Position numbers and translations under genes: made by a program. The notes under the pieces were generated by a model, which made no database searches, was not told where the DNA came from, and saw nothing but the letters and a program-made list of their open reading frames with translations. From Candidatus Bathyarchaeia archaeon (GTDB taxonomy: Bacteria; Patescibacteriota; Microgenomatia; PFEM01; JAFGMK01): 64,000 bases of DNA. Location of the stretch: positions 314,961 to 378,960 of the forward strand of contig DATKWK010000017.1 of NCBI GenBank assembly GCA_035529595.1. Reading direction: 5' to 3'. Positions 6,505 through 54,058 of the stretch are shown piece by piece. Numbering within the stretch: the first letter of the stretch is position 1; every line of letters begins with the position of its first letter.

Positions 6505-6553
6505 CACCTCCGGGGTGCACACCTATTGACACCTTGGTACATGAAAAAAATAA

Positions 6554-6572
6554 TCTCTCAGTTGTTTCTCAG
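6554..6572 (+). promoter_or_regulatory. tandem direct repeat TCTCTCAG / TTTCTCAG (11-bp register), candidate response-regulator box
   Basis: Located 9-27 nt upstream of the -10 TATAAT (6581-6586) of the RR/HK operon. The same repeat is found at 8980/8991 and 33502/33512. Confidence 0.35.
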
Positions 6573-6597
6573 TAAATTGCTATAATATGCTCGCAAT

Positions 6598-7281
6598 ATG
6601 AGGATCCTGATTGTAGAAGACGAACACAAAATTGCCAATTCCATTAAAAAAGGACTGGAACAGGAGTCTTATGCGGTTGATACGGCTTATGACGGTGAGC
6701 ATGGTTTTGATCTGGCAGTTTCCGAGGAGTACGATGTTATTATTTTGGATTTAATGTTGCCCAAAATGGATGGAATGGAAATTTGCCGGAAACTTAGACA
6801 AAATGAAGGTATTCACACTCCCATTTTAATGCTGACAGCCAAAGGCCAACTAAATGATAAGATTAACGGTTTGAATGTCGGTGCCGACGATTACTTAGTT
6901 AAACCTTTTGCTTTTACTGAATTATTGGCCAGAATTAGAGCTTTAACCAGGAGGCCGAAGAGCAGCTTAAGTCCGGTTTTAGTAACGGATAACCTGAGTC
7001 TTAATACCTTAACCTTTGAAGTACAGCGGGGCGGAAAACAAATAAAATTATCAAGAAAAGAATTTGCCTTATTGGAATATCTCTTGAGGTATAAAGGCAA
7101 AATCTTGACTAAGGATCGAATAATCAATCATGTTTGGAACTATGATGCTGATATTCTTCCTAATACGGTTGAGGTTTATATCGGTTATTTAAGAAATAAA
7201 ATTGACAAACCCTTTCGAGGCCAAAAGCCTCTTATTCAAACAGTAAGGGGTTTCGGCTATAAGATAGGAGACAAAGATTAA
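6598..7281 (+). CDS. OmpR-family response regulator
   Basis: Receiver domain (ILIVEDEHKIANSIKKGL...DLMLPKMDG...K) plus winged-helix C-terminus (LTRRP...KEFALLEYL...VRGFGYKI). Confidence 0.85.
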   Translation: MRILIVEDEHKIANSIKKGLEQESYAVDTAYDGEHGFDLAVSEEYDVIILDLMLPKMDGMEICRKLRQNEGIHTPILMLTAKGQLNDKINGLNVGADDYLVKPFAFTELLARIRALTRRPKSSLSPVLVTDNLSLNTLTFEVQRGGKQIKLSRKEFALLEYLLRYKGKILTKDRIINHVWNYDADILPNTVEVYIGYLRNKIDKPFRGQKPLIQTVRGFGYKIGDKD

Positions 7282-8309
7282 TGTTTAAATCGGCGCGGAT
7301 AAAATTAACTGGCTGGTATCTTTTGATTATTATGCTTGTCAGCCTGCTTTTCAGTGGCATAATTTATACTGCTATTTCAAAAGAATTAGAACGTGGTTTT
7401 AGACAAGCCGAAATGCATTTTAGGATGGGTGAGCCAGCTATTCCATTATTCAGGCAATCTTGGCGTTTAGAAAATGCCAGCCCGCAATTGATTGAAGAGT
7501 TGGAACTGGCTAAAAAAAGACTGGTTCTAAATTTATTATCAATTAATGGAGCAATACTGGGTTTCTCGGCTATTGCTGGTTATCTCTTGGCCGGAAAGAC
7601 GCTTCAACCAATTGAAACGGTTCTTGAAGAACAAAAAAGATTTGTTGCTGATGCCTCACATGAGCTGCGGACACCTCTGACTGCCCTTAAGACCGCAATT
7701 GAAGTTACCCTCAGGGAAAAAGATATAAGTCCTAAGGAAGCCAGGTCGGTTTTAAAAAGCAACCTTGAGGATGTTAATAATTTAGAAAATTTAGCCAATA
7801 ACCTTTTGAATTTAGCCCAGTATCAAGACAACGGTCATAATCTTATTTTTCAGGATGTCAATATTGCCGCAGTAGTCAGAAATGCCTACCGGAAGATTCT
7901 GCCTCTGGCAAAGAAAAAGAATATCAAAATAAAACTTGAAGTCGAGAAGCAAGCGGTTTTTGCAAACCAGGACAGTCTGGAGAAGATGTTGGTTAATTTT
8001 TTGGACAATGCCATTAAATATACCCCTGAAGGTGGTAAAGTTTCCATAACAGCAAAGCAGGGCAAGAAAAACCTGGTTATTAAGATTAAAGATTCGGGAG
8101 TCGGCATTCCCAAGAAAGACCTGTCTCATATTTTCGACCGGTTTTACCGGGCCGAACAGTCGCGTTCGAAGGATAAAATTTCCGGTTTTGGCTTGGGACT
8201 ATCGCTGGCCAAAAGAATTATTGAAATTCACAAAGGAAGCGTGTCTGTTGCCAGTACTTTGGGTAAGGGAACTGCTTTTACCGTTAAACTTCCCTTTAGA
8301 CATTCTTAA
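7281..8309 (+). CDS. sensor histidine kinase
   Basis: Two TM helices, H-box ASHELRTPLTALK, and N/G1/G2 boxes (NLLDNAIKYT, DSGVGI, GFGLGLSLAKRI). Start overlaps the RR stop. Confidence 0.85.
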   Translation: MFKSARIKLTGWYLLIIMLVSLLFSGIIYTAISKELERGFRQAEMHFRMGEPAIPLFRQSWRLENASPQLIEELELAKKRLVLNLLSINGAILGFSAIAGYLLAGKTLQPIETVLEEQKRFVADASHELRTPLTALKTAIEVTLREKDISPKEARSVLKSNLEDVNNLENLANNLLNLAQYQDNGHNLIFQDVNIAAVVRNAYRKILPLAKKKNIKIKLEVEKQAVFANQDSLEKMLVNFLDNAIKYTPEGGKVSITAKQGKKNLVIKIKDSGVGIPKKDLSHIFDRFYRAEQSRSKDKISGFGLGLSLAKRIIEIHKGSVSVASTLGKGTAFTVKLPFRHS

Positions 8310-8466
8310 TCTCCTTTAAGCATTTTTTCAGCTGAATTGTTTTCACTACTGACTAATGTCAAAAATACTTCCTTTCTCAAATAGAGAACTACCTATTAAG
8401 CTTTTTCTCAGATTACTGGCTTATACTGCCGGTTTAGAATTATTGGGAAGGAGGTGAAATAGAAAG

Positions 8467-8925
8467 ATGCAAAATCAAAAATCAAAAACTAAAAAATTAC
8501 TGGTGATTTTCGGCCTGGCCTGTAGTTTATTGCTACTGCTTGGTATTTTCCGTAGGGGAAAGACAGCTGTTCAGGCAGCTGCTCCGAACCAGTCGTTTAT
8601 TGACCGACTCGTAGAGCGCTTTGGTCTTAACAAAGACGAAGTTACGACTGTTATGGACGAGATGCGCACTGAGCGCCAACAGCAAAGGCAAGCTTATATG
8701 GAATCCAGATTTAATCAAGCAGTTAGTGACGAAATAATTACTACTGACCAAAAGCAAGCCTTACTCAAAAAGTATACCGAAATGGAGGACAGGCATAATC
8801 AGGAACGGGAAGAGATGAGAAAGTGGGTGGAAGAAAGCGGCATTGACTTTGATAAGCTTGCTCCTTATGGAGTTGGATTCGGCGGTAAAGGCTTCGGCCG
8901 GGGACATCATTTCGTTGGTTTCTAA
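8467..8925 (+). CDS. secreted LTXXQ-motif protein, CpxP/Spy-like (tentative)
   Basis: Signal peptide, helical Gln/Glu-rich body with repeats (VTTVMDEMRTERQQ, IITTDQKQALLKK), and a Gly-rich tail. Sits right after the TCS, as cpxP does with cpxRA. Confidence 0.35.
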   Translation: MQNQKSKTKKLLVIFGLACSLLLLLGIFRRGKTAVQAAAPNQSFIDRLVERFGLNKDEVTTVMDEMRTERQQQRQAYMESRFNQAVSDEIITTDQKQALLKKYTEMEDRHNQEREEMRKWVEESGIDFDKLAPYGVGFGGKGFGRGHHFVGF

Positions 8926-8979
8926 TCGCTGGTTCGCTATTTATCAAAAAACACTTCCTGTTCTATAATAGGGAGTGTT

Positions 8980-8999
8980 TTTTCTCAGCCTTTTCTCAG
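8980..8999 (+). promoter_or_regulatory. tandem direct repeat TTTTCTCAG x2 (11-bp spacing), candidate response-regulator box
   Basis: Lies between a -10-like TATAAT at 8963 and a second TATAAT at 9025, upstream of the HlyD/ABC operon. A single copy at 8403-8411 precedes the CpxP-like gene. Confidence 0.35.
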
Positions 9000-9064
9000 A
9001 TATTAGCAATAGAATTGCCCCGGAGTATAATAGATTAAAGATTTTACAAAAAAGGGATATTTTT

Positions 9065-10291
9065 ATGGTTAATTTTAAAAAATTAATTAATAGCCGGAAA
9101 AAAATCATTATTTTGGTGATTCTTTTATTAATTGGCGGGTTTGCTGCTTGGCGCATTTTAGGAAAGAGGGAAGATAAAACTCAATATCAGACAGTCCAAG
9201 TTGAGCGCGGTATGATCATTTCTTCAGTTTCTGCCTCCGGTCAGGTATTAAGCGTCAATATCATGAGCGCTAATACTAAGGCCTCAGGGATTGTTAAAAA
9301 GGTTTATGTCAAGGACGGCGATCAGGTTAAAAAAGGTGACAAAATCCTTGAAATAGATCTTGATTTTCAGGGAGAACAAAAGAACACCCAAGCTTGGTCT
9401 TCTTATTTATCGGCTAAAAATAGTCTGGAATCGACCAAGGTGACTCTTTATAGTCTTGATTCAGCGATGTGGGCTGCTAATAGAAAGTTAATTAATGACG
9501 CGGTTGCTCGTGGTTTGACGGTTGACGATCCGACCTACATTCAGCAGCATGATGACTGGTTAGCCGCAGAAGCAAAATATATCAACCAAAAAGCGGCGAT
9601 TAATCAATCTCAAGTGGCTCTTTCCAATAGCTGGTTAAGCTATAAACTAACTTCGCCGGTAATTACCGCTCCAACCGACGGTGTGGTTACCAGTCTGATG
9701 TATACCGAAGGGATGAGTATCGGTTCCCTGGATACGGGTTCGGCTGAATCAAACCAGAAAATCGCTACGATTCAGACCGAAGGTTTGCCGGTTATTTCGG
9801 TTAATCTCTCCGAGATTGATGTTTCCCGGGTCACGTTGGGTAAAAAAGCAACGATTATTTTAGACAGTATTGCCGATAAAACCTTTACCGGGGAAGTTAA
9901 GGGCGTTGACCGGATTGGTCAGACGGCCAGTGGTGTTACCCAATACCCGGCGATTATAAAACTTGATTCTTCCTCAGTAGAGATTTTACCGAATATGAAA
10001 GTTACGACTAATATTGTTCTTGACCGGAAGGATGATGTTTTGCTGGTACCTTCAAGTGCGGTTCAGAGTCAGAACGGCCAAAATTATGTCCAGGTGATTT
10101 TAGATGACCAACCGCAATCTGTTTTGGTAACCACGGGTTTGACTTCTGATACTCAGACAGAAATTATCTCCGGTGTGAAAGAGGGGGATAAGGTTATTTC
10201 CGGAAGCGTTTCTTCTTCCAGCCAGCAGCAGAACGGCGGATCGCCTTTTGGATCTTCCGGAATGGGCGGTATGATGAGAATAGTCCATTAG
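9065..10291 (+). CDS. efflux transporter periplasmic adaptor subunit (HlyD/MacA family)
   Basis: N-terminal TM anchor, biotinyl-lipoyl-like hairpin (KVYVKDGDQVKKGDKILEID), beta-barrel and MP domains. ATG at 9065 is preferred over the upstream ORF start. Confidence 0.75.
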   Translation: MVNFKKLINSRKKIIILVILLLIGGFAAWRILGKREDKTQYQTVQVERGMIISSVSASGQVLSVNIMSANTKASGIVKKVYVKDGDQVKKGDKILEIDLDFQGEQKNTQAWSSYLSAKNSLESTKVTLYSLDSAMWAANRKLINDAVARGLTVDDPTYIQQHDDWLAAEAKYINQKAAINQSQVALSNSWLSYKLTSPVITAPTDGVVTSLMYTEGMSIGSLDTGSAESNQKIATIQTEGLPVISVNLSEIDVSRVTLGKKATIILDSIADKTFTGEVKGVDRIGQTASGVTQYPAIIKLDSSSVEILPNMKVTTNIVLDRKDDVLLVPSSAVQSQNGQNYVQVILDDQPQSVLVTTGLTSDTQTEIISGVKEGDKVISGSVSSSSQQQNGGSPFGSSGMGGMMRIVH

Positions 10292-10307
10292 CAATTCAGG
10301 AGAAAGT

Positions 10308-11015
10308 ATGATTAAAGTTTCTCATCTTACCAAGATTTACCAGACTGGCGAAGTTGAAGTCAGGGCTTTGGATGATGTCAGTTTTGAGATAAAAAAAGGC
10401 GAATTTGTAGCGGTCATGGGGCCTTCCGGTTCGGGCAAATCAACCTTAATGCATTTGCTCGGCGCTTTGGATGTTCCTACGAGTGGCGAATATCGGTTAA
10501 GTGGAGAGAATATCGCCGATCTTAATGATGATCAGCTAGCTGAAATCAGAAATAGGAGGATTGGTTTTGTCTTTCAAACTTACAATTTGCTTCCAAGAAC
10601 CACCGCTCTGAAAAATGTGACCGTGCCGATGATTTACGGTGATGTTCCTAAAGAAGAAAGAGAAGTAAGAGCCAAGAAACTCTTAGAGATGGTCGGCTTA
10701 GGAGATCGGCTTTTCCATAACCCCAATCAGCTTTCCGGTGGCCAACAGCAGCGGGTAGCGATTGCCCGGGCTTTAGCAATGGACCCGAGCATTATTCTGG
10801 CTGATGAACCGACCGGCAATATTGCCACCAAGCAGGCTGAAGAAATAATGCTGATTCTAGAAAGTTTAAACCGGCAGGGACATACCATTGTGATGATTAC
10901 CCATGAATCGGAAATAGCCGAGCATGCCAAAAGAATCATTCACGTCAGGGATGGCCGGATAATTGAGGATAAAAAGAACGGCCGACGGCGAATCTTGTTG
11001 AAGAAAACAGAATAG
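10308..11015 (+). CDS. ABC transporter ATP-binding protein (MacB-type)
   Basis: Walker [10 protein letters not shown], signature [15 protein letters not shown], Walker B ILADEPTG. Confidence 0.9.
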
Positions 11016-11036
11016 CTATACCGGAGGATTTGAGAT

Positions 11037-12260
11037 ATGGATTATCAGGAATTAACCTTGGAAAGCTTTGGAACGCTGGCCTTAAATAAAGTCAGAACTG
11101 GTCTGGCGATGTTAGGTGTCATTATTGGCATCGGCAGTGTAATTGCTCTGATATCTTTAGGTCAGGCCTCGCAAAAGTCGGTCGAAAATCAGATTAAGTC
11201 GTTAGGTTCAAATTTATTAACTATCAGTCCGGGAGCAAGAGTCAGCGAAGGAGTGCGGGGAGCGTTTGGGGGTGTGACTACCTTGAGCTATGATGATGCT
11301 AAAGCAATTAAAAATTCTTCCCAAGTTACCACGGTAAAAGAAGTCTCGGCCGAATTCCGAAGAAATAGCCAGGTCATCGCCGGTCGGAACAATACCAATA
11401 CTCAAGTATCCGGAGTTACCCCCGAATATTCAGCTATCAGGAATATTAACCTAACCTCGGGTTTATTTATCAGCGAGCAGAATCTGACAGGTATGAATCG
11501 AGTGGCCGTTTTAGGACCCCAAGTTGCTGCCGATTTGTTTGGGGAGGGCGTTAATCCGGTTGGTAAAACGATTCGAATTGACGGTACTGCTTTTAATGTC
11601 ATCGGCCTGACTGAAAGTAAAGGCGGCAGCGGACCGATGAACGATGACGATAAAATCTATGTTCCCTTAACTACTGCTCAAAAATTTATTTTTGGGGTGA
11701 ATTACGTCAATTCGATCTACGTTGAGGCTAAAAGCGAGAAGGTCATGGATCAAGCTCGTAATGAGATCGGCTATTTGCTTTTGGAAAGGCATAAACTGAC
11801 TGATCCAACGCTGGCTGACTTTTCGATTATGTCCCAGGAGGATATTCTCAGTACCGTTTCCCAGGTAACCGGAACCTTTACTACCTTACTATCAGGAATC
11901 GCGGCGATTTCTCTGGTTGTCGGCGGAATCGGAATCATGAATATTATGCTGGTGACGGTAACCGAACGGACTCGGGAGATTGGCCTTCGTAAAGCCTTGG
12001 GTGCCAAAAAGAAATGGATTACCGCCCAATTTTTGTTTGAAGCAGCTATAATAACCCTGGTTGGCGGATTGGTCGGCATTATCGTCGGAATTGGGGTTTC
12101 CTTTTTAATCTCCAAATCAATGGGTTTGCCACCGACGCTGTCTTTGTCCTCGATACTGCTGGCTTTTAGCGTTTCCGTAGCCATCGGGGTTTTGTTCGGC
12201 TGGTATCCGGCTCGCAAGGCGGCTGCGCTTGAACCAATCGAAGCCTTACGGTACGAATAG
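11037..12260 (+). CDS. ABC transporter permease (FtsX/MacB family with periplasmic domain)
   Basis: One N-terminal TM, a ~230-aa periplasmic domain, then three C-terminal TM helices (FtsX fold). 407 aa. Confidence 0.8.
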   Translation: MDYQELTLESFGTLALNKVRTGLAMLGVIIGIGSVIALISLGQASQKSVENQIKSLGSNLLTISPGARVSEGVRGAFGGVTTLSYDDAKAIKNSSQVTTVKEVSAEFRRNSQVIAGRNNTNTQVSGVTPEYSAIRNINLTSGLFISEQNLTGMNRVAVLGPQVAADLFGEGVNPVGKTIRIDGTAFNVIGLTESKGGSGPMNDDDKIYVPLTTAQKFIFGVNYVNSIYVEAKSEKVMDQARNEIGYLLLERHKLTDPTLADFSIMSQEDILSTVSQVTGTFTTLLSGIAAISLVVGGIGIMNIMLVTVTERTREIGLRKALGAKKKWITAQFLFEAAIITLVGGLVGIIVGIGVSFLISKSMGLPPTLSLSSILLAFSVSVAIGVLFGWYPARKAAALEPIEALRYE

Positions 12261-12302
12261 AAAATTTAAAGATGGGTGACAAAAAAAGGGGAGGTGATTA
12301 AA

Positions 12303-12782
12303 ATGTCCCAAACGGGAACTGAAAATGCTAAACCAAAAGGTTTGATAAAAACCATGAATTTTATAATGGTGTTTTTGGCAATTGCGATGGCTGTTGGCGG
12401 ATTTTTTGCCGGTATGAAATATCAACAAAGCCGAAGACCATCAATTGCTGACTTTCCCGGTAACGGCCGGTTTGGCCAAAGAGGATTGAATAACGATAAC
12501 GGGCAAAACCAGCAGCGTCCGGCCGGTTCGGCAATGGTCAGGGGAGAAATCATTAAGAAAGACGAGTCAACTATTACCGTTAAACTGGCGGATGACAGCA
12601 GTAAAATTGTATTTCTTTCTGAAAATACGGCCATCAACAAAGCAACTGAGGGTTCGGCTGATGATTTGGTCAGTGGTGGAGAGGTGATGGTTTTTGGAAA
12701 TACCAACTCTGACGGCAGCATCTCAGCCAGCCAAATTCAATTGAATTTCGGGTTGGAAAGCAACTTTAATCAGACTGATTAA
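12303..12782 (+). CDS. membrane-anchored hypothetical protein
   Basis: Strong RBS aaggggaggtg 6 nt before the ATG at 12303. One TM helix, then a Gly/Asn/Gln-rich low-complexity region. Confidence 0.4.
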   Translation: MSQTGTENAKPKGLIKTMNFIMVFLAIAMAVGGFFAGMKYQQSRRPSIADFPGNGRFGQRGLNNDNGQNQQRPAGSAMVRGEIIKKDESTITVKLADDSSKIVFLSENTAINKATEGSADDLVSGGEVMVFGNTNSDGSISASQIQLNFGLESNFNQTD

Positions 12783-13146
12783 GATCCGCTTAGTATTTCT
12801 AGTGTTTTGATTTCAACTTTTTCACTGGTTTTTCAAGATAAGTAATATCTGACACGCCGGGTATATTGTCGGTTAACACTCCAGGTTAACAGTAGTAATT
12901 ATCGTCCTCTGTAAGAGTTCAGTATTACTGACACAGATAGCCTTAAGACACCCCCGAGGTGAAATATTAAGACACCTCGGAGTGGAGGGATTCTAAACTG
13001 TTACCTATTGTATTTTCTCTGGTGAATTCGATTATGTTAAAATGTATTTATGAAGCTGGTTCTTTACAGCGAGATTTTAGCTGGAAATTATGCGATCGAC
13101 GAAGACGCTCAGGAAAAGAGTTTAATATCGTTTAGCTGATAGTTTT

Positions 13147-13698
13147 ATGCAACTATTATTGCTGCCGGGAAATAGTTTCCACAACAAAGAATGGATCGAG
13201 GCGATCAAAGCTGTTCTTGAAGATAATTTCGACCTGGTAAAGATCCAATACTATCATCACTGGGAGACAGGTAAAGGCATGATTGATTTTGACTTTGAAC
13301 TTGAGGAACTGGTAAAAACCGCCGAAGATCTAAAAGATTATCTTATTTTTGGTAAATCGGCCGGAGTCCTACTGGCGCTCCGGGCGATTTATGAGAAAAA
13401 AATTGTTCCTCGAAAGTGTATTTTTGTCGGTAGTGCTGTTTGGTGGGGCAAAGGACTGGGATTGCCGCTTGATTTGTGGCTAAAAAACTTGACTGTTCCG
13501 GCTTTGTTTATCCAAAAAAGTTATGATCCGGCGATCCCTTTCAAGGAGCTTGAAAAACTCCTAAAAGTATTAAAACTAAAAAATTTCCAGTTGGCTGAAG
13601 TCCCTGGTAATGACCATGTTTACCGAGAACTTCATCAGCTTAAAAGTATCGTTCTTCCTTTTCTGAATATTACTTCAGAATATGCCGAGCAAGCATAA
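13147..13698 (+). CDS. alpha/beta-fold serine hydrolase (YdeN/RBBP9-like)
   Basis: GxSxG-type nucleophile elbow FGKSAG, a late His (NDHVY), and about 180 aa. Confidence 0.45.
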   Translation: MQLLLLPGNSFHNKEWIEAIKAVLEDNFDLVKIQYYHHWETGKGMIDFDFELEELVKTAEDLKDYLIFGKSAGVLLALRAIYEKKIVPRKCIFVGSAVWWGKGLGLPLDLWLKNLTVPALFIQKSYDPAIPFKELEKLLKVLKLKNFQLAEVPGNDHVYRELHQLKSIVLPFLNITSEYAEQA

Positions 13699-13719
13699 AG
13701 TTAGTTTTTTGATATAAAT

Positions 13720-14391
13720 ATGAAAAAATCAATCGAAATTGAGCTAAAATTTGAGATCTTGGATCCATCGCAGATCGAACATTTTTTAGAATCTTTAAAG
13801 TTCGTTTTAAAAAAAAGAATCGTTGATGTTTATTTGGATACGCCAGACGCTAATTTATTTAAACAAGGCATTTTCATCAGAATCCGTAATAATAAAAAAC
13901 TGGATTTTAAGTTTAACCCTAAACACTTCGGTGGGCACGGAAGTTATTGCCTGCACGATCATTGCCAGGAACTGTCTTTCGCTTTACCTTTAAAAACTGA
14001 TGCCGTCGCCGCAGCCAACCGAATATGTTCGGTTTTAGGTCTTAAAAAAATAATCGATCCCAATTTGGCCGGATTAAAGCAGGCGAATCATTTAATTGAA
14101 TCGGTGGTTATTGATAAGTTGAGGAGGAGTTATCAAGATAGTAAATTTAGTTATGATTTAGATGATGTTAAAAATTTAGGTCTTTTTTTGGAAATAGAAT
14201 CTTTAGTTTCGACTGATGAGAATATTGAAAAAATAAAAAAAGAAATGATTACTAGATTGAAAAATTTAAAAATTAAACATCTCAATGTTGGTTATAATGA
14301 AATTTATTGGCGAAAACATAATTTTAATCTTTATCTTCAGGGACTTTATCTGCTTGAGGAAGATTACCAAAAATATCGCCAAGGAAAATAG
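13720..14391 (+). CDS. CYTH-domain protein (triphosphate tunnel metalloenzyme, CyaB/ThTPase-like)
   Basis: N-terminal IEIELKF, which is the ExExK signature, with alternating charged beta-strands. Confidence 0.55.
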   Translation: MKKSIEIELKFEILDPSQIEHFLESLKFVLKKRIVDVYLDTPDANLFKQGIFIRIRNNKKLDFKFNPKHFGGHGSYCLHDHCQELSFALPLKTDAVAAANRICSVLGLKKIIDPNLAGLKQANHLIESVVIDKLRRSYQDSKFSYDLDDVKNLGLFLEIESLVSTDENIEKIKKEMITRLKNLKIKHLNVGYNEIYWRKHNFNLYLQGLYLLEEDYQKYRQGK

Positions 14392-17562: not shown

Positions 17563-18879
17563 CTAATTTAGCCTGCCCATCAGCATCGGGGAGTTAAGCC
17601 GCTTCCTGTCGGTTTCTCCTTTAAGAAGATCCTTTTTTCTTGCCGGTATGTCTCCGCGGTCGCTTTGATGTTGGGGCGTTTTACAAGCAAGGCAACTGGT
17701 TCCTAAGTAAATAGTGTGTTTACCGTATTTTCCGCTTAAAAGATCAAGACTTTGGTAGATTTTAGTCATTCTTTCAAAAGTAAAAGGTTTTTCAAATAGG
17801 CTGATTTGAACTTGGTGATCTTCCATTAATTTAGTCAGAACGACACCGGTCAGACGATAAAAAAGACAAGGTTTATAAATCTGGTTGATGACCAGATTAA
17901 GGCTTTTGATAATTTCGTTCGGGAAAGCCGTCGGCCGGGTAAACTTTACCCCGACTCCCAAAGTTTCAAATGTCTGAGTTCTTAGCAGGAAGATTGCCTC
18001 CCGGGCTAGCAGATGGTGACGCCGGGCCTTGATGCAGGCGTTCTCAATGTTTTTTGAAAGCTGGCTGAGGACAAAATCACGATTATCCGAAGGCGGAGTA
18101 AAAGTTTTGAATTTTTGAATTGAGGCCCAGGTTTCTTTCTCTTCGATTTCCAGAGGGAAGATGAACTGGCCGTTTAATTCCTGCCAGATTTCCCAAATCG
18201 GTTTGGTAAATCTTTTTTTGATCCAACTTTCTTCCTTGCGCGCCAATTCCAGGGCAGTGAAAACGCCCAGTTTGGCAAGATAAGCGCTTGTTTGGCTGCC
18301 GATACCCCAAATTTTATCGACCGGTAATTTCTCCAAAAAAAGATGAATTTTTCTGCCGGGGATAACCGTTAGACCGGCCGGTTTCTGCCAGTTGCTGGCA
18401 ATTTTGGCGACCACTTTATTTGGTCCGAGGCCAATTGAAAAAGTAAAACCAAGTTCTTCCTTCAGCCTCTTTTGAATCTCAGTTACTATTTGGATATAGT
18501 TCATCCGCAGCGGCTGGCGTAAGCCGGTCAGGTCGGCGAAGCATTCGTCAATGCTATACTCCTCAACCTCTGGCGTAAACCGGCGGACAATCGCAAAAAA
18601 TCTTTGGGAAAGAAGACTGTAAGTTTCATAATCGGAAGGCAAAAAGATGGCTTGGGGGCAAATCTTTTTAATTTCTGAAAATCTCATTGCTCGGATGACG
18701 CCGGCGGCTTTAGCTTCATAGCTTAAAGAAGCGGCAATTCCCCGTTCCCTGCCGGTGACTACCGGCTTGCCTTTCAGTTGGGGGTGACGCGATTGTTCAC
18801 AGGAAGCAAAAAAAGCATCACCATCAATATGAATAATCGCTCGGGGGAAGGAAGAGACAGTTAAAGGTTGGTTGTTCAT
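17563..18879 (-). CDS. Y-family DNA polymerase (DinB/UmuC-like)
   Basis: N-terminal IIHIDGDAFFASCEQ and 438 aa overall. Overlaps the lexA stop (ATGA), consistent with an operon. Confidence 0.85.
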   Translation of the reverse strand: MNNQPLTVSSFPRAIIHIDGDAFFASCEQSRHPQLKGKPVVTGRERGIAASLSYEAKAAGVIRAMRFSEIKKICPQAIFLPSDYETYSLLSQRFFAIVRRFTPEVEEYSIDECFADLTGLRQPLRMNYIQIVTEIQKRLKEELGFTFSIGLGPNKVVAKIASNWQKPAGLTVIPGRKIHLFLEKLPVDKIWGIGSQTSAYLAKLGVFTALELARKEESWIKKRFTKPIWEIWQELNGQFIFPLEIEEKETWASIQKFKTFTPPSDNRDFVLSQLSKNIENACIKARRHHLLAREAIFLLRTQTFETLGVGVKFTRPTAFPNEIIKSLNLVINQIYKPCLFYRLTGVVLTKLMEDHQVQISLFEKPFTFERMTKIYQSLDLLSGKYGKHTIYLGTSCLACKTPQHQSDRGDIPARKKDLLKGETDRKRLNSPMLMGRLN

Positions 18880-32701: not shown

Positions 32702-33000
32702 ATGAACAAAGTAAAAGTTTTAATTGAGGGCTATGCCAGAGAGATAAAAGATGGTTTCGTCGCTTCGTCGACGACTGTCTTGATTAAGAGTAACGGGAAA
32801 CGAATCGTTGTGGATCCGGGAATAAACAGGAAATTGCTGCTTGCAAAACTTAGAAAAGAGGGTTTGAAATTAGAAGATATTGATTTTGTTTATATGACCC
32901 ATTACCACTTGTGAAGAACGAGAAGTTACTGATCGGAAGTCGCAAGAGGATCTTGAAAATTGCGGATTGGATTATCCCCGGTCACGGAAGAATGTTTAGG
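32702..33000 (+). pseudogene. MBL-fold metallo-hydrolase remnant
   Basis: The N-terminal 70 aa end at THYHL* (truncated HxHxDH motif). 3 nt after the stop, in frame +1, comes KRILKIADWIIPGHGRMFRNK*, the C-terminal His motif. The ~150-aa core is missing. Confidence 0.55.
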
Positions 33001-33028
33001 AATAAATAAAACAAAGGATCATCAAATT

Positions 33029-33277
33029 ATGAGTATCTGGACTAAAAATATTTTGCGTTTTAAACTGGTAAGAGTTTCAATCGCTATTGGAGTGATTACG
33101 CTGCTAATATTTTATCTGATTGATTATAACTCTGTTGAAAATAAATGCAGACGCCAGATAAATAAATCAAGCTCTTATTTGCCGATACGATCCTCAAATA
33201 AATTACAGGAGTTGCAACTTGATACGGTAAAAAATCAACTAGAAGAGGAATGTATTAATAATAACGGCGTGCGCTAA
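33029..33277 (+). CDS. small membrane protein, hypothetical
   Basis: ATG at 33029 (MSIWTKN...). The longer ORF start overlaps the MBL remnant. Confidence 0.3.
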   Translation: MSIWTKNILRFKLVRVSIAIGVITLLIFYLIDYNSVENKCRRQINKSSSYLPIRSSNKLQELQLDTVKNQLEEECINNNGVR

Positions 33278-33296
33278 TTGATATAAAAATAATTTT

Positions 33297-33557
33297 ATGG
33301 ATAAGTTTCTCAATTCTTATTGGTTTATTCTGGAAGAAACGTGGTCTCAGCTTTCTTTCCTAATTAATAAAAAGCCATCAGAGGAATATGAGTATAGTTT
33401 TTTTGCTGTCAACAAGAATGGTGGTTACCAGTCTTCAGTAATCTATAAGCAAAATGAGATATTTAATTATTGGGTTCCGGAACGTATGCAGCCTTGTGAA
33501 TTTTCTCAGGCTTTCTCAGGAAAGTATCCCGAGATAGTGAAATTAACAAATCCTTGA
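33297..33557 (+). CDS. hypothetical protein
   Basis: 86-aa ORF. Contains the tandem TTTCTCAGG repeat at 33502-33520, so it may not be a real gene. Confidence 0.25.
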   Translation: MDKFLNSYWFILEETWSQLSFLINKKPSEEYEYSFFAVNKNGGYQSSVIYKQNEIFNYWVPERMQPCEFSQAFSGKYPEIVKLTNP

Positions 33558-33629: not shown

Positions 33630-34139
33630 ATGAAAATACTTGTATTTACAGAAGGCACTATTTTAATGCATTCGTCTGCCAAAAGCTTGATTAGAGAGCA
33701 GAGAGTTGAACAATCGAAAGCAAGATCGGAATTGTTGCCTACCCGCTTTTTTATGGAAGAGATTCCCAATGGTAATGCAGTTAAAAAATTAAAGGTTTGG
33801 AAAAATCAAGGTGCAGAGATTTTTTATCTGACCTCAAGAACTACACAAAAACAAATAGGTGATATCAAAAATATTCTTAAAAAATATCACTTTCCAGATA
33901 ATAAAAACTTGTTTTTTCGTAAAAAGGGAGAACAATATAAAGATGTAGCTGAGAAACTAATGCCTGATATTTTAATAGAGGATGACTGTGAGAGTATTGG
34001 TGGTATGTCAGAAATGACTTATCCACACATCCGAAAAGATTTAAAATCTAAGATAAAATCAATTGTTGTCAAAGAATTTGGGGGAGTAGGCCACTTACCA
34101 AGTGATTTAGAAGAACTGCAAAATTATGATTCGAAATAA
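33630..34139 (+). CDS. hypothetical protein (HAD-like features)
   Basis: 169 aa. N-terminal ILVFTEGT and alternating beta/alpha pattern. Confidence 0.3.
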   Translation: MKILVFTEGTILMHSSAKSLIREQRVEQSKARSELLPTRFFMEEIPNGNAVKKLKVWKNQGAEIFYLTSRTTQKQIGDIKNILKKYHFPDNKNLFFRKKGEQYKDVAEKLMPDILIEDDCESIGGMSEMTYPHIRKDLKSKIKSIVVKEFGGVGHLPSDLEELQNYDSK

Positions 34140-49305: not shown

Positions 49306-50691
49306 GTGAAACCTAAAAAACCATTATCTTTAAAAGAGCAAACCTTTTTGGTTAAGAATCTGCATTGTTCTTCTTGTGAGTTGTTAATAGAAAAAAGACT
49401 CCTAAACCAAGAAAATGTGATTCGCGTTAAAGCTTCAGTAAAAGACGGCTTAGTAAAGATTAACTACCAAGGTAACGGACTTAAAATTCAAGATTTAAAT
49501 CGGCTTTTCAAAAACGAGAATTATCTTTTCTCGTATCCATCAATTGGCAGCCAAGTTAGTAAGCCTCCGAGACTGAAAGATGCTTTATCGGCGATAATGA
49601 CCGCTCTTTTGATTATCATCGGTTTTGTGCTGATTAATCAATCAGGTTTGTTGGCTTCAGTGGAAATTAAAAAGACCTCATCTTTACCGGTTTTTTTTCT
49701 TTTTGGGCTTCTGGCCGGAGTTTCAAGTTGCGCTGCTTTGGTTGGTGGTCTTGTCTTATCCATGAGCAGGCAATGGTCTTGGGCTTATTCAGGAAAGGAG
49801 TCAGTTTTAACTCGACTCGAACCTCACCTGCTTTTTAACTCCGGGCGATTAGTTTCATATGGATTATTGGGGGCACTTCTGGGCAGTATCGGGAGCATCT
49901 TTAAGCCTTCACCTTTTTTTTCCTCGATTTTAGTCATTGGAACCAGTCTGTTAATGATTATATTAGCTCTCCAGATGTTGGGGATAAGAACCTTTCGACG
50001 AATTCAGATCGCTTTACCCCGGTCCGTCACCGGCTTTATCACTAACGAGGGGAATTTTAAAGCCCGTTATCTACCCTTTGTAATGGGTGCTTTAACTTTT
50101 TTTCTACCCTGTGGTTTTACCCTGACCGCACAGGGCTTAGCAACTATAAGCGGCAGCCCGATGCAAGGGGGATTGATTATGTTTCTGTTTGCCTTGGGTA
50201 CCTTGCCTTCACTTCTGCTAATAAGCCTTTCCGGTATTGCTTTTGTACAAAAACCTTCCCGGTCTGGTCTCTATCTTAAGATAGCCGGAGTGGTGGTCCT
50301 TTTTTTTGCTTTCTTTAATCTGAATTCTCAGTTGAATACGTTAGGCTTACCTTCCCTGAGTGATTTTAGGACAAAAAAGAGTAATGCTTCGCAATCAATA
50401 GAGCAGAACATACAGGTCATTGAAATGGCAGCGTCTGCTTATGGTTATGATCCCAGTTATTTTAAAGTTAAAGTTGGTATTCCCGTGAGATGGGAGATTA
50501 CTGACAAAGGAACCAGTGGTTGTACCAGTGCGGTGATCGCCAAAAACCTGTTTGACGGGCAGATAAATCTGATTCATGGCCAGACTAGCGTTAAAGAGTT
50601 TATCCCCGAAAAACCGGGACGTTATAAGTTCAATTGCTGGATGGGAATGGTATCCGGAATAATTGAAATTGAAGGGTGGGAGCTGGAATGA
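49306..50691 (+). CDS. HMA-domain / polytopic permease / cupredoxin-like fusion protein (copper homeostasis, putative)
   Basis: N-terminal HMA CxxC (LHCSSCE), about 8 TM helices with SSCA motif (TauE/CcdA-like), and a C-terminal beta domain ending in GRYKFNCWMGMVSGIIEI. Confidence 0.45.
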   Translation: MKPKKPLSLKEQTFLVKNLHCSSCELLIEKRLLNQENVIRVKASVKDGLVKINYQGNGLKIQDLNRLFKNENYLFSYPSIGSQVSKPPRLKDALSAIMTALLIIIGFVLINQSGLLASVEIKKTSSLPVFFLFGLLAGVSSCAALVGGLVLSMSRQWSWAYSGKESVLTRLEPHLLFNSGRLVSYGLLGALLGSIGSIFKPSPFFSSILVIGTSLLMIILALQMLGIRTFRRIQIALPRSVTGFITNEGNFKARYLPFVMGALTFFLPCGFTLTAQGLATISGSPMQGGLIMFLFALGTLPSLLLISLSGIAFVQKPSRSGLYLKIAGVVVLFFAFFNLNSQLNTLGLPSLSDFRTKKSNASQSIEQNIQVIEMAASAYGYDPSYFKVKVGIPVRWEITDKGTSGCTSAVIAKNLFDGQINLIHGQTSVKEFIPEKPGRYKFNCWMGMVSGIIEIEGWELE

Positions 50692-51770
50692 AAAACAGAA
50701 AAAGGAAGATCGTTGTTGGCATGTCCGGAGGAGTCGATTCTTCGATGGCTCTAGTTTTGTTAAAACAGCAGGGTTGGCAGCCGGTAGGCGTTTCTCTAAA
50801 GTTGCCGGTCTGGCAGGAAGCGCCGGGTTTATCGGTTGAAAATATTTACAGCTCCAACCGGTCTTTGCAGATTGCTGCCAGGATTTGTCGAAACGTAAAC
50901 GTTCCCCATCACATAATCGATGTCCGGTCTGAGTTTAAAAAGACGGTCATTGGTTATTTTATTTCTGAACTTAAAAATAACAAAACTCCTAATCCCTGTG
51001 TCATTTGTAATCGCCATTTGAAGTTTAAGAAACTGCTTGAATTTGCTGAAAAAGAGAAAGCAGACTTTATTGCTACTGGCCATTACGCTCGGATAAGAAA
51101 AAACCAGCAAACCGGTAAATATGAACTGCTGAAGGCAAAAGATAAAACTAAGGACCAAACATATGCTCTCTGCTTTTTACCTCAGGAATGGTTGGGTAAA
51201 ATTGTTTTCCCCCTCGGAAATTATGCTAAAAAAGAGGTTTATCAGATAGCTAAATCCTCGGGGTTTGAATTTTTCCTGAAACGAAAACAAAGTCAGGATT
51301 TTTGTTTCGCGACCGGGTTGTCTTTGTTGTCTTTCTTGAAAAAAGAAATCGGAGAAAAAAGCGGTGACATAATAGATAATGAAGGAAATGTTTTAGGTCA
51401 ACATTCGGGTTTGCATTTTTATACCATCGGACAAAGGAGACGATTAGGTCTTTCGGGTGGTCCTTACTTTGTCAAAGGTATTGATTCGGAAAAGAATATC
51501 TTGATTGTGACTAAAAACGAAAAAGAGGTAACGCAACGAGAACTTAAACTTTACCCATTTCATTTTATCAGCGGACGTTCGCTTCCAAAAAAGCAACCTG
51601 TAATGGCAAAAGTTCGCTACCGCCAAGTATTGAGTAAGGCGCTTCTCTATCCGCCTGAAAAGAACAAACTGCGTTTGGTCTTTGGCCGACCACAAAGAGC
51701 AGTTACTTCTGGTCAGTTTGCCGTCTTTTATCAGAGTGAAGTTTGCCTGGGAGGAGGAGTGATTTTATGA
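50688..51770 (+). CDS. mnmA: tRNA-specific 2-thiouridylase
   Basis: PP-loop [12 protein letters not shown] and the [10 protein letters not shown] Cys region. ATG overlaps the upstream TGA, and its own stop overlaps the copA ATG. Confidence 0.85.
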
Positions 51771-54058
51771 AGAAGAAAATAGATTTGGACATTTCCGGTA
51801 TGCATTGCAGCGGTTGTGTCGTTAGTATTGAGACTCTTCTGAAGAAACAAGAGGGTATCTATTCAGCCAGCGTCAATTTTGCTTCCGAAAGGGCAATAAT
51901 CGAGTTTGATCCGCGAAGAATCACTCTAAAAAGGATCAAAGAAATGGTTAAGAAGATAGGTTACGAAGCCGAAGAATCGGGAGAAGATCATCAAGAAGCG
52001 GAAAGTAAAAAAATCAAGAAATTAAGAGATACTTTTCTTGGTTCATTACTCCTTGGTTTACCTCTTTTTTACCTAAGCATGGGAGATATGCTTAGCCTGC
52101 CAAGGCTACCGATCTCTACCAGCACGAATACCCTGATTCAATTTTTGTTGACAGCAGGAATTATGATTCAAAACGTACGCCTTTATATATCCGGACTTAA
52201 GAAACTAAGGCAAAAGAATCCTGACATGGATTCTTTGGTGTCGATGGGAACATTAGCTGCCTTTGTTTACAGTTTAATTGCTTCAATCAGCGTCTTTTTC
52301 GGACCGGCAAAGATAAAGGAAACTCATCTTTATTTTGAAAGCGCTGGTTTTATCTTAATCTTTATTTCTTTGGGAAAATATTTGGAGGCTATTACCAAGG
52401 AGAAAACAAGTGAAGCGGTCAAAAAACTTATCGGACTAAGACCTAAAGAAGCAACAGTAATCAGGGGAGGTGAACAAATGAAAATTCCGATATCAGCAGT
52501 ATTAACCGGCGATTTGCTTCTGGTAAAACCCGGCGAGAAGATACCGGTTGACGGTGTTGTTGTCAGCGGTTATTCGGCAGTAGATGAGAAAGCCTTTACC
52601 GGTGAGAGTCTTCCGGTTGAGAAGAAAACCGGTGATGAAGTTATCGGCGCCACAATAAATATGACTGGCATCTTAAAAATCAAAGCCCGGCATATAGGTA
52701 AAAAAATGATGCTTTCTCAAATCATTAAGATAGTCGAAGAAGCGATCGGCTCTAAAGCGCCGATCCAGCTTTTGGCAGATAAAATTTCGTACTACTTCGT
52801 TCCGGTGGTAATGGTAATCGCTTTTTTGGCCTTTTTTTTCTGGTTAATCGTCGGTCAATCATTGGAGTTTGCTTTAACGGTGTTTATTGCGGTTTTGATT
52901 ATTGCCTGTCCTTGTTCTTTAGGATTGGCGATGCCAACAGCAATTATGATGGGCGCGGGATTAGCTGCCCAACGGGGGATTTTAATCAGGAAACCCCAGG
53001 CCTTGGAAATGGCGGAAAAGGTTAATTTGGTGGTGTTTGACAAAACCGGTACCCTAACTTTGGGCAAACCAACCGTCACTGATGTTCTGTCCGTGGCCAA
53101 ACTGAAACTTAAAAGTTCATCAATAAATTCGAAACTGTCTGAAGATCAACTTGATGTTTTGCAGGCCACTGCCTCACTGGAAAAAAACTCGCAGCACCCA
53201 TTGACTCACGCAATTTTAAAAAAAGCCAACCAAGAAAATTTGAAGTTATTTAAGGTTGAAAGTTTCACCACAATTCCCGGCCAAGGAATAACAGGAAACC
53301 TGGAGTCAAAAACTCCAGGTGTTAAACTCAAACTGCTTTTGGGAAATAGAAAATTAATGGCAGAAAATCAGGTCCTGATCAAACCAGCCGGAAATAGAGC
53401 AATCGGTCAATTAGAAAATCAAGGAAAGACAGTCATGATTTTAGCAGTAAATCGACGTCTGGCCGGATTAATCGCCGTGGCTGATATTGTGAAGGATCAG
53501 GCTCAGGAGACCCTGGATCTACTTAGAAGATTAGGTAAGAAAATAGTAATTATTACCGGTGATAACCGCCGTGTTGCTGATGTAATCGCACATAAGTTAG
53601 GAGTTGATCAAGTCTTATCAGAGGTTTTACCTCAAGAAAAGTCAAAAGAGATTAAGAAATTACAGCAACAAGGCCATACCGTAGCTATGGTCGGTGACGG
53701 TATCAATGATGCTCCGGCTTTAGCTCAGGCTGATTTGGGAATAGCCTTGGGGTCCGGTACCGACGTGGCTATCGAAACAGGTGATATTATCCTGGTGAAA
53801 GACGATTTACTTGATGTAGTTAAAGCTATTGATTTGAGCCGGTACACCTTAAAGAAAATTAAGCAGAATCTTTTTTGGGCTTTTTCCTACAATATTATTG
53901 GTATTCCGATCGCTGCCGGTATTTTGTATCCGACTACCGGTTGGCTCTTGGAGCCGATGATTGCGGCGGCAGCAATGGCTTTTTCTTCAGTCAGCGTTGT
54001 AGTCAATTCGTTACTGATGAAAAGGTATCGATTATCTAAGCCTGGTACACTTCCTTAA
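51767..54058 (+). CDS. copA: copper-translocating P1B-type ATPase
   Basis: HMA GMHCSGC, CPC motif, [20 protein letters not shown] ggaggagg before ATG 51767. Confidence 0.9.

Follow-up and report, generated by a model that had tools for sequence, protein, structure and literature searches.

Genes of the locus and the repeated element

The short direct repeat TTCTCAG and the genes that it precedes were analyzed in a 64-kb stretch of contig DATKWK010000017.1 (the window is this whole stretch, and positions are window coordinates on the + strand). The locus in question runs from a two-component system to a pump and encodes an OmpR/PhoB-family response regulator, a histidine kinase, a 152-amino-acid (152-aa) protein, and the adaptor, ATP-binding cassette (ABC) ATPase, and MacB/FtsX-type permease of the pump operon (Table 1). 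The repeat reads aatCTCTCAGttgtTTCTCAGtaaattgcTATAATatgctcgcaatATG upstream of the regulator gene, ctttTTCTCAG upstream of the 152-aa gene, ttTTCTCAGccttTTCTCAGatattagcaaTAGAAT upstream of the adaptor gene, and aTTTTCTCAGgcTTTCTCAGg at a further position, at 33.5 kb.

Tandem TTCTCAG repeats had been noticed in an earlier reading of this DNA (hereafter the original prediction), the coordinates of which were right to within 1 nucleotide (nt). The 8-mer TTTCTCAG is found on the + strand at 6565, 8404, 8981, 8992, 33502, and 33512, and in the pair at 6554 the first copy is TCTCTCAG, which has one mismatch. In total, the 8-mer occurs nine times in the window against 3.76 expected, an expectation that agrees with the two to four isolated occurrences estimated previously. 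The 7-mer TTCTCAG occurs 16 times (9.1 expected), and subtraction of the four copies in the sites of the locus and the two at 33.5 kb leaves 10 copies, which is the background level; only the tandem, in-register copies are therefore unusual. The tandem form TCTCAG-N(2-5)-TCTCAG was found three times against 0.02 expected, and three was reached in none of 100 shuffles, which bears out the earlier view that three such pairs would not arise by chance. Scans of the whole window for Rfam families and tRNAs gave no tRNA gene and no Rfam family at the gathering score, and the repeats therefore do not belong to any known RNA element. A full-text literature search for TTCTCAG/CTGAGAA together with "response regulator" and "direct repeat" returned only incidental primer or sequence matches and no published description of the motif, and for Candidate Phyla Radiation two-component systems, none of the 12 best-ranked papers contained the phrase "Candidate Phyla Radiation."

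The sites in the locus share one design, in which two 7-bp half-sites stand on either side of a 4-bp spacer in a strict 11-bp register. The half-site consensus is TTCTCAG, and the distal half-site is looser, often TYTTAAG/C. With a weight matrix built from 15 orthologous sites outside the window, a scan of the 64 kb gave four matches above the maximum of the null (18.0 in 30 shuffles), starting at 8980 (31.0), 8312 (24.4), 8392 (24.3), and 6553 (20.3), and the next best match scored 10.9. All four are on the + strand, are intergenic, and lie within the regulator-to-pump locus. The copy at 8404 had been regarded as single, with a degenerate companion at 8371. Its partner is instead TATTAAG at 8394-8400, exactly 11 bp upstream and kept as TTAAG(C) in relatives, and the 8371 copy lies 20 bp from this distal half-site, out of register. 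The TTAAG form is explained by the overlap of the distal half-site with the stop codon of the kinase gene in relatives. The site at 8314-8331 had escaped the original prediction; it occupies the place that the promoter site of the 152-aa gene has in relatives, and the hexamer 10 nt downstream of it, TTCACT, is a poor -10 box.

Table 1. Coordinates of the sites, promoter elements, and genes discussed in the text
Feature	Position	Strand	Description
Regulator site, regulator-kinase promoter	6555-6572	+	CTCTCAG-ttgt-TTCTCAG (7+4+7)
-10 region TGcTATAATAT	6578-6588	+	Hexamer TAATAT at 6583-6588, 10 nt past the site and 9 nt before the ATG
OmpR/PhoB-family response regulator, 227 aa	6598-7281	+	PF00072 5.6e-32, PF00486 1.4e-25
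Histidine kinase, 342 aa	7281-8309	+	HisKA + HATPase_c; orthologues about 60% identical, syntenic
Extra site	8314-8331	+	CTTTAAG-catt-TTTTCAG, directly past the kinase stop codon
Site at the 152-aa gene promoter	8394-8411	+	TATTAAG-cttt-TTCTCAG; conserved in L039, L040, L042, L051, and L077-L080
-10 box TATACT	8422-8427	+	10 nt past the 8394-8411 site (alignment A4)
152-aa protein	8467-8925	+	N-terminal membrane/signal helix, helical hairpin, Gly-rich tail
Terminator-like hairpin past the 152-aa gene	8946-8983	+	-19.1 kcal/mol, z = -6.8
Site at the pump operon promoter	8982-8999	+	TTCTCAG-cctt-TTCTCAG; best matrix score in the window; conserved in L002, L037-L039, L042, L051, and L077-L080
-10 box TAGAAT	9010-9015	+	10 nt past the 8982-8999 site; spacing fixed in all relatives
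Pump operon	9065-12260	+	Assigned by Pfam, NCBIfam, and synteny
YknX/HlyD-type adaptor	9065-10291	+	RND_mfp above cut-off, YknX-type domains
ABC ATPase	10308-11015	+	PF00005 1.9e-35
MacB/FtsX-type permease, 407 aa	11037-12260	+	PF12704 4.4e-48, PF02687 7.4e-23
DUF5666-like secreted protein	12276-12782	+	Weak Pfam match
Tandem pair at 33.5 kb (doubtful)	33503-33519	+	TTCTCAG-gct-TTCTCAG; 3-bp spacer, 10-bp spacing

Promoter architecture

The element is followed by 10 nt and then a TANNNT -10 box, and no -35 box is present. All 12 nonredundant target promoters have TANNNT exactly 10 nt past the proximal half-site (TATACT, TAGAAT, TAGAGT, TAAAAT, and others), and the same 10-nt gap and TANNNT box are found in 7 of 7 regulator promoters when the box is read as TAATAT. 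In the 12-sequence alignment of the target promoters (A4), the T, the A, and the final T of the box are invariant and the A at its fourth position nearly so; the invariant pattern as a whole is T-AG-N2-TTTTCTCAG-N10-TA-A-T. The alignment of seven orthologous regulator promoters (A3) retains as invariant only TCAG...TT-TCAG and the -10 box. As read from the letters, the -10 box is preceded at 17 bp by the hexamer AGCNTT, which is not -35-like. The promoters thus have the features by which the PhoB type is defined, namely, 11-bp tandem repeats, 10 bp to TANNNT, and no -35 box.

At the regulator promoters, the block TATAATAT holds both a TATAAT 8 nt past the site and a TAATAT 10 nt past it, and the invariant columns A6582, T6583, A6584, A6585, and T6588 fit TAATAT at 10 nt. 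The distance from the -10 box to the ATG of the regulator gene is 6 to 9 nt in 7 of 7 orthologues (including L002 and L037-L041), without a Shine-Dalgarno sequence, and the regulator-kinase mRNA is for these two reasons probably leaderless. A comparable layout is seen at the 169-aa gene at 33630, where TAAAAT lies 6 nt before the ATG.

At the pump promoters, a second TATAAT-like box is found at a distance that varies from 25 to 31 nt among relatives. Between the 152-aa gene and the pump site lies the terminator-like hairpin, the U-run of which merges into the T-rich distal half-site of the pump promoter; counterparts of it were found in L051 (770-793) and L077 (12318-12353). This hairpin ends the 152-aa gene, and the locus thus comprises three transcription units, each with its own site.

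Conservation in related genomes

A kinase-based scan of genomes and metagenomes identified nine loci in which the kinase is about 60% identical and the genes follow in the same order, and the 7-mer + 4 nt + 7-mer element was present in 22 of the 22 promoter regions examined in them. Four further assemblies, reached through the regulator (76 to 79% identical) and labelled Microgenomates, Patescibacteria, or "Bacillota," also keep the cassette, with sites ahead of the regulator and adaptor genes and past the kinase stop codon. In one of the four (L079), the regulator-promoter site is degenerate, falling under the matrix threshold and visible by reading the sequence only, and in another (L080), the third site lies upstream of an unannotated 678-aa gene beside the ABC and permease genes. 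Altogether, about 13 related genomes have the element at these three positions although the DNA around it is unalignable, within the conserved order regulator-kinase-152-aa protein-adaptor-ABC-FtsX. Conservation upstream of orthologous operons had been named in the original prediction as a means of checking it, and absence from orthologous promoters as grounds for refuting it; the prediction withstands this test, since the motif is present there and isolated copies in the rest of the window are no commoner than chance.

The distribution of the motif has a clear boundary. No matrix match was obtained in about 60 other kinase loci, unrelated or distant, and kinase relatives with 37% identity (labelled Omnitrophota and others) lack the motif, from which we conclude that the operator is specific to a close clade.

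Several of the related loci have local changes of their own. In L038 (6052-6269), the 152-aa gene is lost, and its operator site (6062) and a Shine-Dalgarno-like remnant are kept between the kinase and adaptor genes. In L079, a methyltransferase gene and an Amidase_3 gene are inserted upstream of the adaptor gene (12374-14203), and a weak site, TTATCAG-ctga-GTCTCAG (18406-18427), followed after 10 nt by TAAAAT, precedes an FMN_bind/ApbE/Rnf-Nqr-like operon; its score of 13.3 is below the null maximum, and it could be an extra regulon member in that genome. The GC-richer L080 (10001-18667), labelled Bacillota, carries genes for an HtrA-like protease and the 678-aa protein between the small-protein and permease genes, and its ABC gene appears frameshifted. 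The HtrA-like protease was considered as a further envelope-stress target and rejected, its upstream region being without a site.

Predicted recognition of the element by the adjacent regulator

A receiver domain and a C-terminal winged-helix Trans_reg_C domain place the regulator in the OmpR/PhoB family. Its best relatives in the PDB are DrrD, Mycobacterium tuberculosis PhoP, and RpaA, and its own family comprises well over a hundred clusters at 75 to 85% identity. The kinase, as read from its sequence, has two predicted membrane helices around an outer loop of ~50 aa and has no HAMP or PAS domain. Neither protein reached any of the equivalog cut-offs compared (PhoB, BaeR, CusR, CpxA, and others).

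The 7+4+7 sites, at the promoter of the regulator itself and at neighbouring ones, are consistent with direct-repeat, tandem-dimer binding by an OmpR/PhoB-type regulator. M. tuberculosis PhoP is 41% identical to the regulator. PhoP binds as a tandem dimer to TCACAGC-N4-TCACAGC with a strict 4-bp spacer (crystal structure PDB 5ED4), its bases being contacted by Asn212, Val213, Glu215, Ser216, Tyr217, and Tyr220, with the wing residue Arg237 in the minor groove of the spacer (PMC4832192). The sites described here likewise have 7-bp half-sites and a 4-bp spacer, and the half-sites are identical at six of seven positions (TCTCAGC versus TCACAGC). They differ in position 3, which is A in the PhoP site and T here; moreover, the regulon and the organism are other, and PhoP is not an orthologue. 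The regulator retains the equivalents of Asn212, Glu215, Tyr217, Tyr220, and the wing Arg237, and it differs in that Val213 is replaced by Thr and Ser216 by Val. Ser216 of PhoP takes part in a water-mediated contact to an adenine in place of which the sites here have thymine, and it is plausible, by analogy with that structure, that contact of the Val with the thymine methyl group accounts for the change from A to T at position 3 of the half-site. The recognition helix, LPNTVEVY[IM]GYLR, is invariant in 11 of 11 motif-carrying orthologues.

OmpR-family paralogues can share similar sites, and binding by the regulator encoded here is a prediction, so the motif might in principle be recognized by another factor, either a paralogous response regulator or an alternative sigma factor. 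However, the motif accompanies the regulator-kinase pair in every genome examined and stands at the promoter of the pair itself, the recognition helix is invariant wherever the motif is present, and the loci of the 37%-identical kinases are without it. A direct 7+4+7 repeat suits a winged-helix tandem dimer and not the -35/-10 pair of a sigma factor, for which a spacing of 10 nt to the -10 box would be too small. We therefore regard recognition by another factor as very improbable.

Proposed circuit and the direction of control

Considering the sequence of the sites, their promoter geometry, and their conservation together, we think it probable that the 7+4+7 TTCTCAG repeats are the operator of the adjacent regulator, predicted to activate three local units. 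The sequences themselves show the motif, its excess over chance, its register, its fixed distance to the -10 box, its conservation at three orthologous promoters, the synteny, and the invariance of the recognition helix; from these we infer binding by the regulator, an activating role in preference to a repressing one, and the kind of signal. In the proposed circuit, an envelope or toxic-compound signal would be perceived by the kinase with its small outer loop and would lead to phosphorylation of the regulator. The phosphorylated regulator would then bind the 7+4+7 sites as a head-to-tail dimer; the 4-bp spacer sets the half-sites a single turn from each other, so that both look to one side of the helix, and the 10 nt to TANNNT, together with the missing -35 box, puts the bound dimer at about -42 to -21, standing in for a -35 element. 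The dimer would thus replace the -35 contact and recruit RNA polymerase, as PhoB does at pho boxes. The first unit would be the regulator-kinase operon itself, under positive feedback and probably with a leaderless mRNA; the second, a monocistronic gene for a small extracytoplasmic helical protein with its own terminator; and the third, the adaptor-ABC-FtsX (MacB/YknXYZ-type) pump operon, probably together with the DUF5666-like gene. Of the original prediction, the OmpR-type operator, autoregulation, and control of the pump operon are retained in this scheme, given the sites at orthologous promoters, and the 33502 pair, the CpxP/Spy label, and the 8371 copy are given up.

The geometry on which the scheme draws is that of the E. 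coli pho box, in which a 3-bp linker joins two 8-bp repeats and a TAN3T/A -10 box follows 10 bp downstream (PMC1906773). The PhoB system of Escherichia coli also shares the 11-bp direct repeats, the 10 bp to TAN3T, and the replacement of the -35 element (PMC1906773). Its regulator gene is autoregulated. It differs in its half-site, which is of the CTGTCAT type compared with TTCTCAG here, and in its targets, which serve phosphate uptake in place of a pump and a small secreted protein. Orthology to the Pho regulon was rejected: the PhoB model gave 200.8 against a cut-off of 296.2 and the PhoR model 196.9 against 334.2, and no phosphate-uptake genes were found among those examined in and around the locus.

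Some observations weigh against activation of three local units. A consensus scan shows a near-consensus sigma-70-like promoter, TTGACA-17-AATAAT (6526-6554), adjoining the regulator site, which would place that site at about +1, and another, TTAGCA-17-TATAAT (9003-9031), relative to which the pump site would sit at about -58 to -37; a third, TTATCA-17-TATAAT, lies at 8941-8969. At the regulator promoter, a perfect extended -10 box (TGnTATAAT) follows just 8 nt past the site, and this promoter may fire at a basal level without an activator. A dimer bound over -42 to -21 might in principle act as a repressor, and the regulon may be larger than the locus, the scan having covered 64 kb of the genome. 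The sigma-70-like promoters beside the sites are not conserved in relatives; they were for this reason not used for the model and are kept as a caveat.

These same observations can be assembled into a repressor model, in which the regulator binds the sites and mainly represses itself and the pump, either by occluding the -35/spacer region or by sitting at the +1 of the upstream promoters. The sites do overlap the region that RNA polymerase must contact, the promoters at 6526-6554 and 8941-8969 would start transcripts inside or just before the sites, and the extended -10 box suggests that the regulator promoter may not need an activator. However, pump and accessory genes beside two-component systems are usually induced, and the upstream sigma-70-like promoters that repression would act on are those not conserved in relatives. 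Moreover, what relatives do conserve is a fixed 10-nt distance to a nonconsensus -10 box and the lack of a -35 box, as is characteristic of activator-dependent promoters of the PhoB type (PMC1906773). We therefore consider predominant repression quite unlikely and suggest that activation by the regulator is the better account of the sites.

The pump and its nearest known counterparts

A MacB core domain, an FtsX domain, an ATPase, and an adaptor, the parts of a MacB-type tripartite pump, were all found. In E. coli MacB the ATPase and the permease are one protein, whereas here they are separate. The Gram-positive MacB-type pumps YknXYZ of Bacillus subtilis and Spr0693-0695 of Streptococcus pneumoniae have in common with this pump an adaptor with YknX-type domains, an ABC ATPase that is a protein of its own, and a MacB/FtsX permease that has four helices and a periplasmic core domain. 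We know of no description of these pumps with this regulator or operator, and yknWXYZ is under the control of sigma-W. The DUF5666-like protein may be a further component of the pump. A gene of this kind directly past the permease gene was also observed in L002 (11319-11654), L077 (15603-16022), and L079 (17510-17932).

As a circuit, the locus resembles BaeSR of E. coli (mdtABCD-baeSR, spy, acrD), an autoregulated two-component system under whose control an efflux pump is induced along with a small extracytoplasmic helical protein. The BaeR box likewise opens with a T-rich TTTTTCTC stretch (PMC3799227). The pump of that system is, however, of the resistance-nodulation-division (RND) type, compared with the ABC/MacB type here, and the small protein here has no detectable homology to Spy. 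Orthology to BaeSR was rejected (BaeR, 145.1 against a cut-off of 380; BaeS, 132 against 603), and the BaeR box (TTTTTCTCCATDATTGGC / TCTNCANAA) is not the TTCTCAG-N4-TTCTCAG consensus, only the T-rich start being alike (PMC3799227).

The BceRS-AB modules were also compared. They too have an OmpR-family regulator, a minimal-sensing kinase, and an FtsX-family ABC transporter side by side, the transporter being induced by the system. Bce permeases contain ten membrane helices and are not paired with an adaptor, and in Bce kinases an outer loop is nearly absent. A Bce-type module was rejected for the locus, which has a 407-aa four-helix MacB-type permease, an adaptor, and a kinase loop of ~50 aa.

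Nature of the signal

The gene content suggests the label of an envelope-stress module. A heavy-metal sensor-efflux module of the Cus/Cop/Czc kind would be another reading of the signal, leaving the operator as it is. In its favor, the regulator scores best in NCBIfam with TIGR01387, a heavy-metal regulator subfamily (236.9 bits), and with RppA, the match of the kinase is to TIGR01386, a family of heavy-metal kinases, CusB/CzcB domains are weakly matched in the adaptor, and the 152-aa protein has a Gly/His-containing tail, which we take to be loosely similar to that of ZraP. However, both family scores are under their curated cut-offs (279.2 for TIGR01387; 174 against 292.55 for TIGR01386), so that membership in CusRS/CopRS/CzcRS is not indicated, the pump is of the MacB/FtsX type and neither RND nor P-type, and the copper ATPase cluster at 49 to 54 kb is without a site. 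We consider a dedicated metal response unlikely and prefer a general envelope-stress or antimicrobial signal. The copper-handling cluster itself (49306-54058) encodes an HMA-DsbD-cupredoxin protein and an HMA P-type ATPase, with MnmA between them, and contains no TTCTCAG site.

The 152-aa protein

The gene of the 152-aa protein follows the kinase gene in L039-L043, L051, and L077-L080, and the protein is present in each of the four further assemblies with 35 to 41% identity. Its distribution is narrow; only 13 word-sharing homologues were found among 5.8 billion sequences. The AlphaFold2 model (predicted local distance difference test score, pLDDT, 72.5) consists of a membrane helix, a hairpin of residues 56-87 and 93-124, and a disordered Gly-rich tail.

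The protein had been called CpxP/Spy-like (LTXXQ, PF07813), a label that failed in every profile and fold test. Searches for a relation to CpxP, Spy, or ZraP gave no Pfam match in seven members, no NCBIfam match, and no PDB profile match; for Spy, the hhalign probability was 0.25%, and the Foldseek search was empty. A literal motif, [LI]T[ETD]xQK, is conserved at the turn of the hairpin and LN..E at the start of its first helix, which is a resemblance to LTXXQ only. The protein may work like CpxP, Spy, or ZraP, yet it is not assignable to that family.

A broader reading is that the cassette is the main, largely self-contained envelope-stress response of Microgenomates/Patescibacteria-type bacteria, that the 152-aa protein is a new, lineage-restricted, nonhomologous substitute for CpxP/Spy, acting as a chaperone or as a feedback partner of the kinase, and that the change of Ser216 to Val tracks an A-to-T switch in specificity relative to PhoP. 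Taken as a whole, we advance this reading tentatively and regard it as speculative.

The tandem pair at 33.5 kb

The original prediction had included the pair at 33502/33512 in the regulon. Chance would very rarely put two perfect 8-mers on one strand at a 10-bp spacing, the pair being one of the three tandems for which 0.02 were expected, and the copies lie in different reading frames; since the second is in the other frame, they do not form an amino-acid repeat. These points would suit a genuine extra operator, acting within the gene or on the downstream 169-aa haloacid dehalogenase (HAD)-like gene, as a lineage-specific or cryptic site. However, all the other sites have an 11-bp spacing and a 4-bp spacer, including those at the orthologous promoters, whereas the spacer here is 3 bp, and PhoP strictly requires 4 bp (PMC4832192). 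A TANNNT box is also lacking 10 nt downstream. The pair lies in a conserved coding region, in codons F-S-Q-A-F-S-G, at the C-E-F-S-Q-A-F motif of a protein family, and the F-S-Q codons of this family account for one of the two copies. The closest homologue, L076, has TTTTCTCAA, without the second copy, and at the homologues of the downstream 169-aa gene (three loci) the neighbours are different and the motif is absent; it is likewise absent from L071-L075. We therefore removed the pair from the regulon and hold it unlikely to be an operator.

The reading frames around the pair, 32960-33277 (105 aa) and 33297-33557 (86 aa), are in different frames and correspond to a single secreted protein of ~180 aa in relatives (C-terminal CEFSxAF.KYPEIV); the split gene at 32960-33557 is a frameshifted gene, a pseudogene, or an assembly error.

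Origin of the contig and significance

The source name given by NCBI is "Candidatus Bathyarchaeia archaeon" (window proteins HUW21436.1-HUW21480.1). The window encodes bacterial-type MetK, MnmA, and DinB and the OmpR-family regulator, and it contains sigma-70-type promoters; its close homologues carry labels of Gottesmanbacteria, Microgenomates, or Patescibacteria. The contig is thus likely bacterial (Patescibacteria) and mis-binned or mislabelled. One of the related loci, L002, similarly carries the label "uncultured Gammaproteobacteria."

The operator design is familiar and the mechanism conventional, and the view of two-component regulation is unchanged; the locus is a clean instance of such regulation in an uncultivated, probably Patescibacteria, lineage. 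The regulatory networks of uncultivated small-genome bacteria are almost entirely unmapped, and here a complete compact circuit is available with its parts located, namely, sensor, regulator, operator, promoter geometry, and three target units. It also provides a natural variant of the structurally solved PhoP-DNA interface, with one base change and two helix substitutions, and a small, narrowly distributed secreted protein family, the strict co-regulation of which with a pump suggests a function in stress. Because many metagenomic genomes share the circuit, purified protein and synthetic DNA suffice for testing it, and the organism need not be cultivated.

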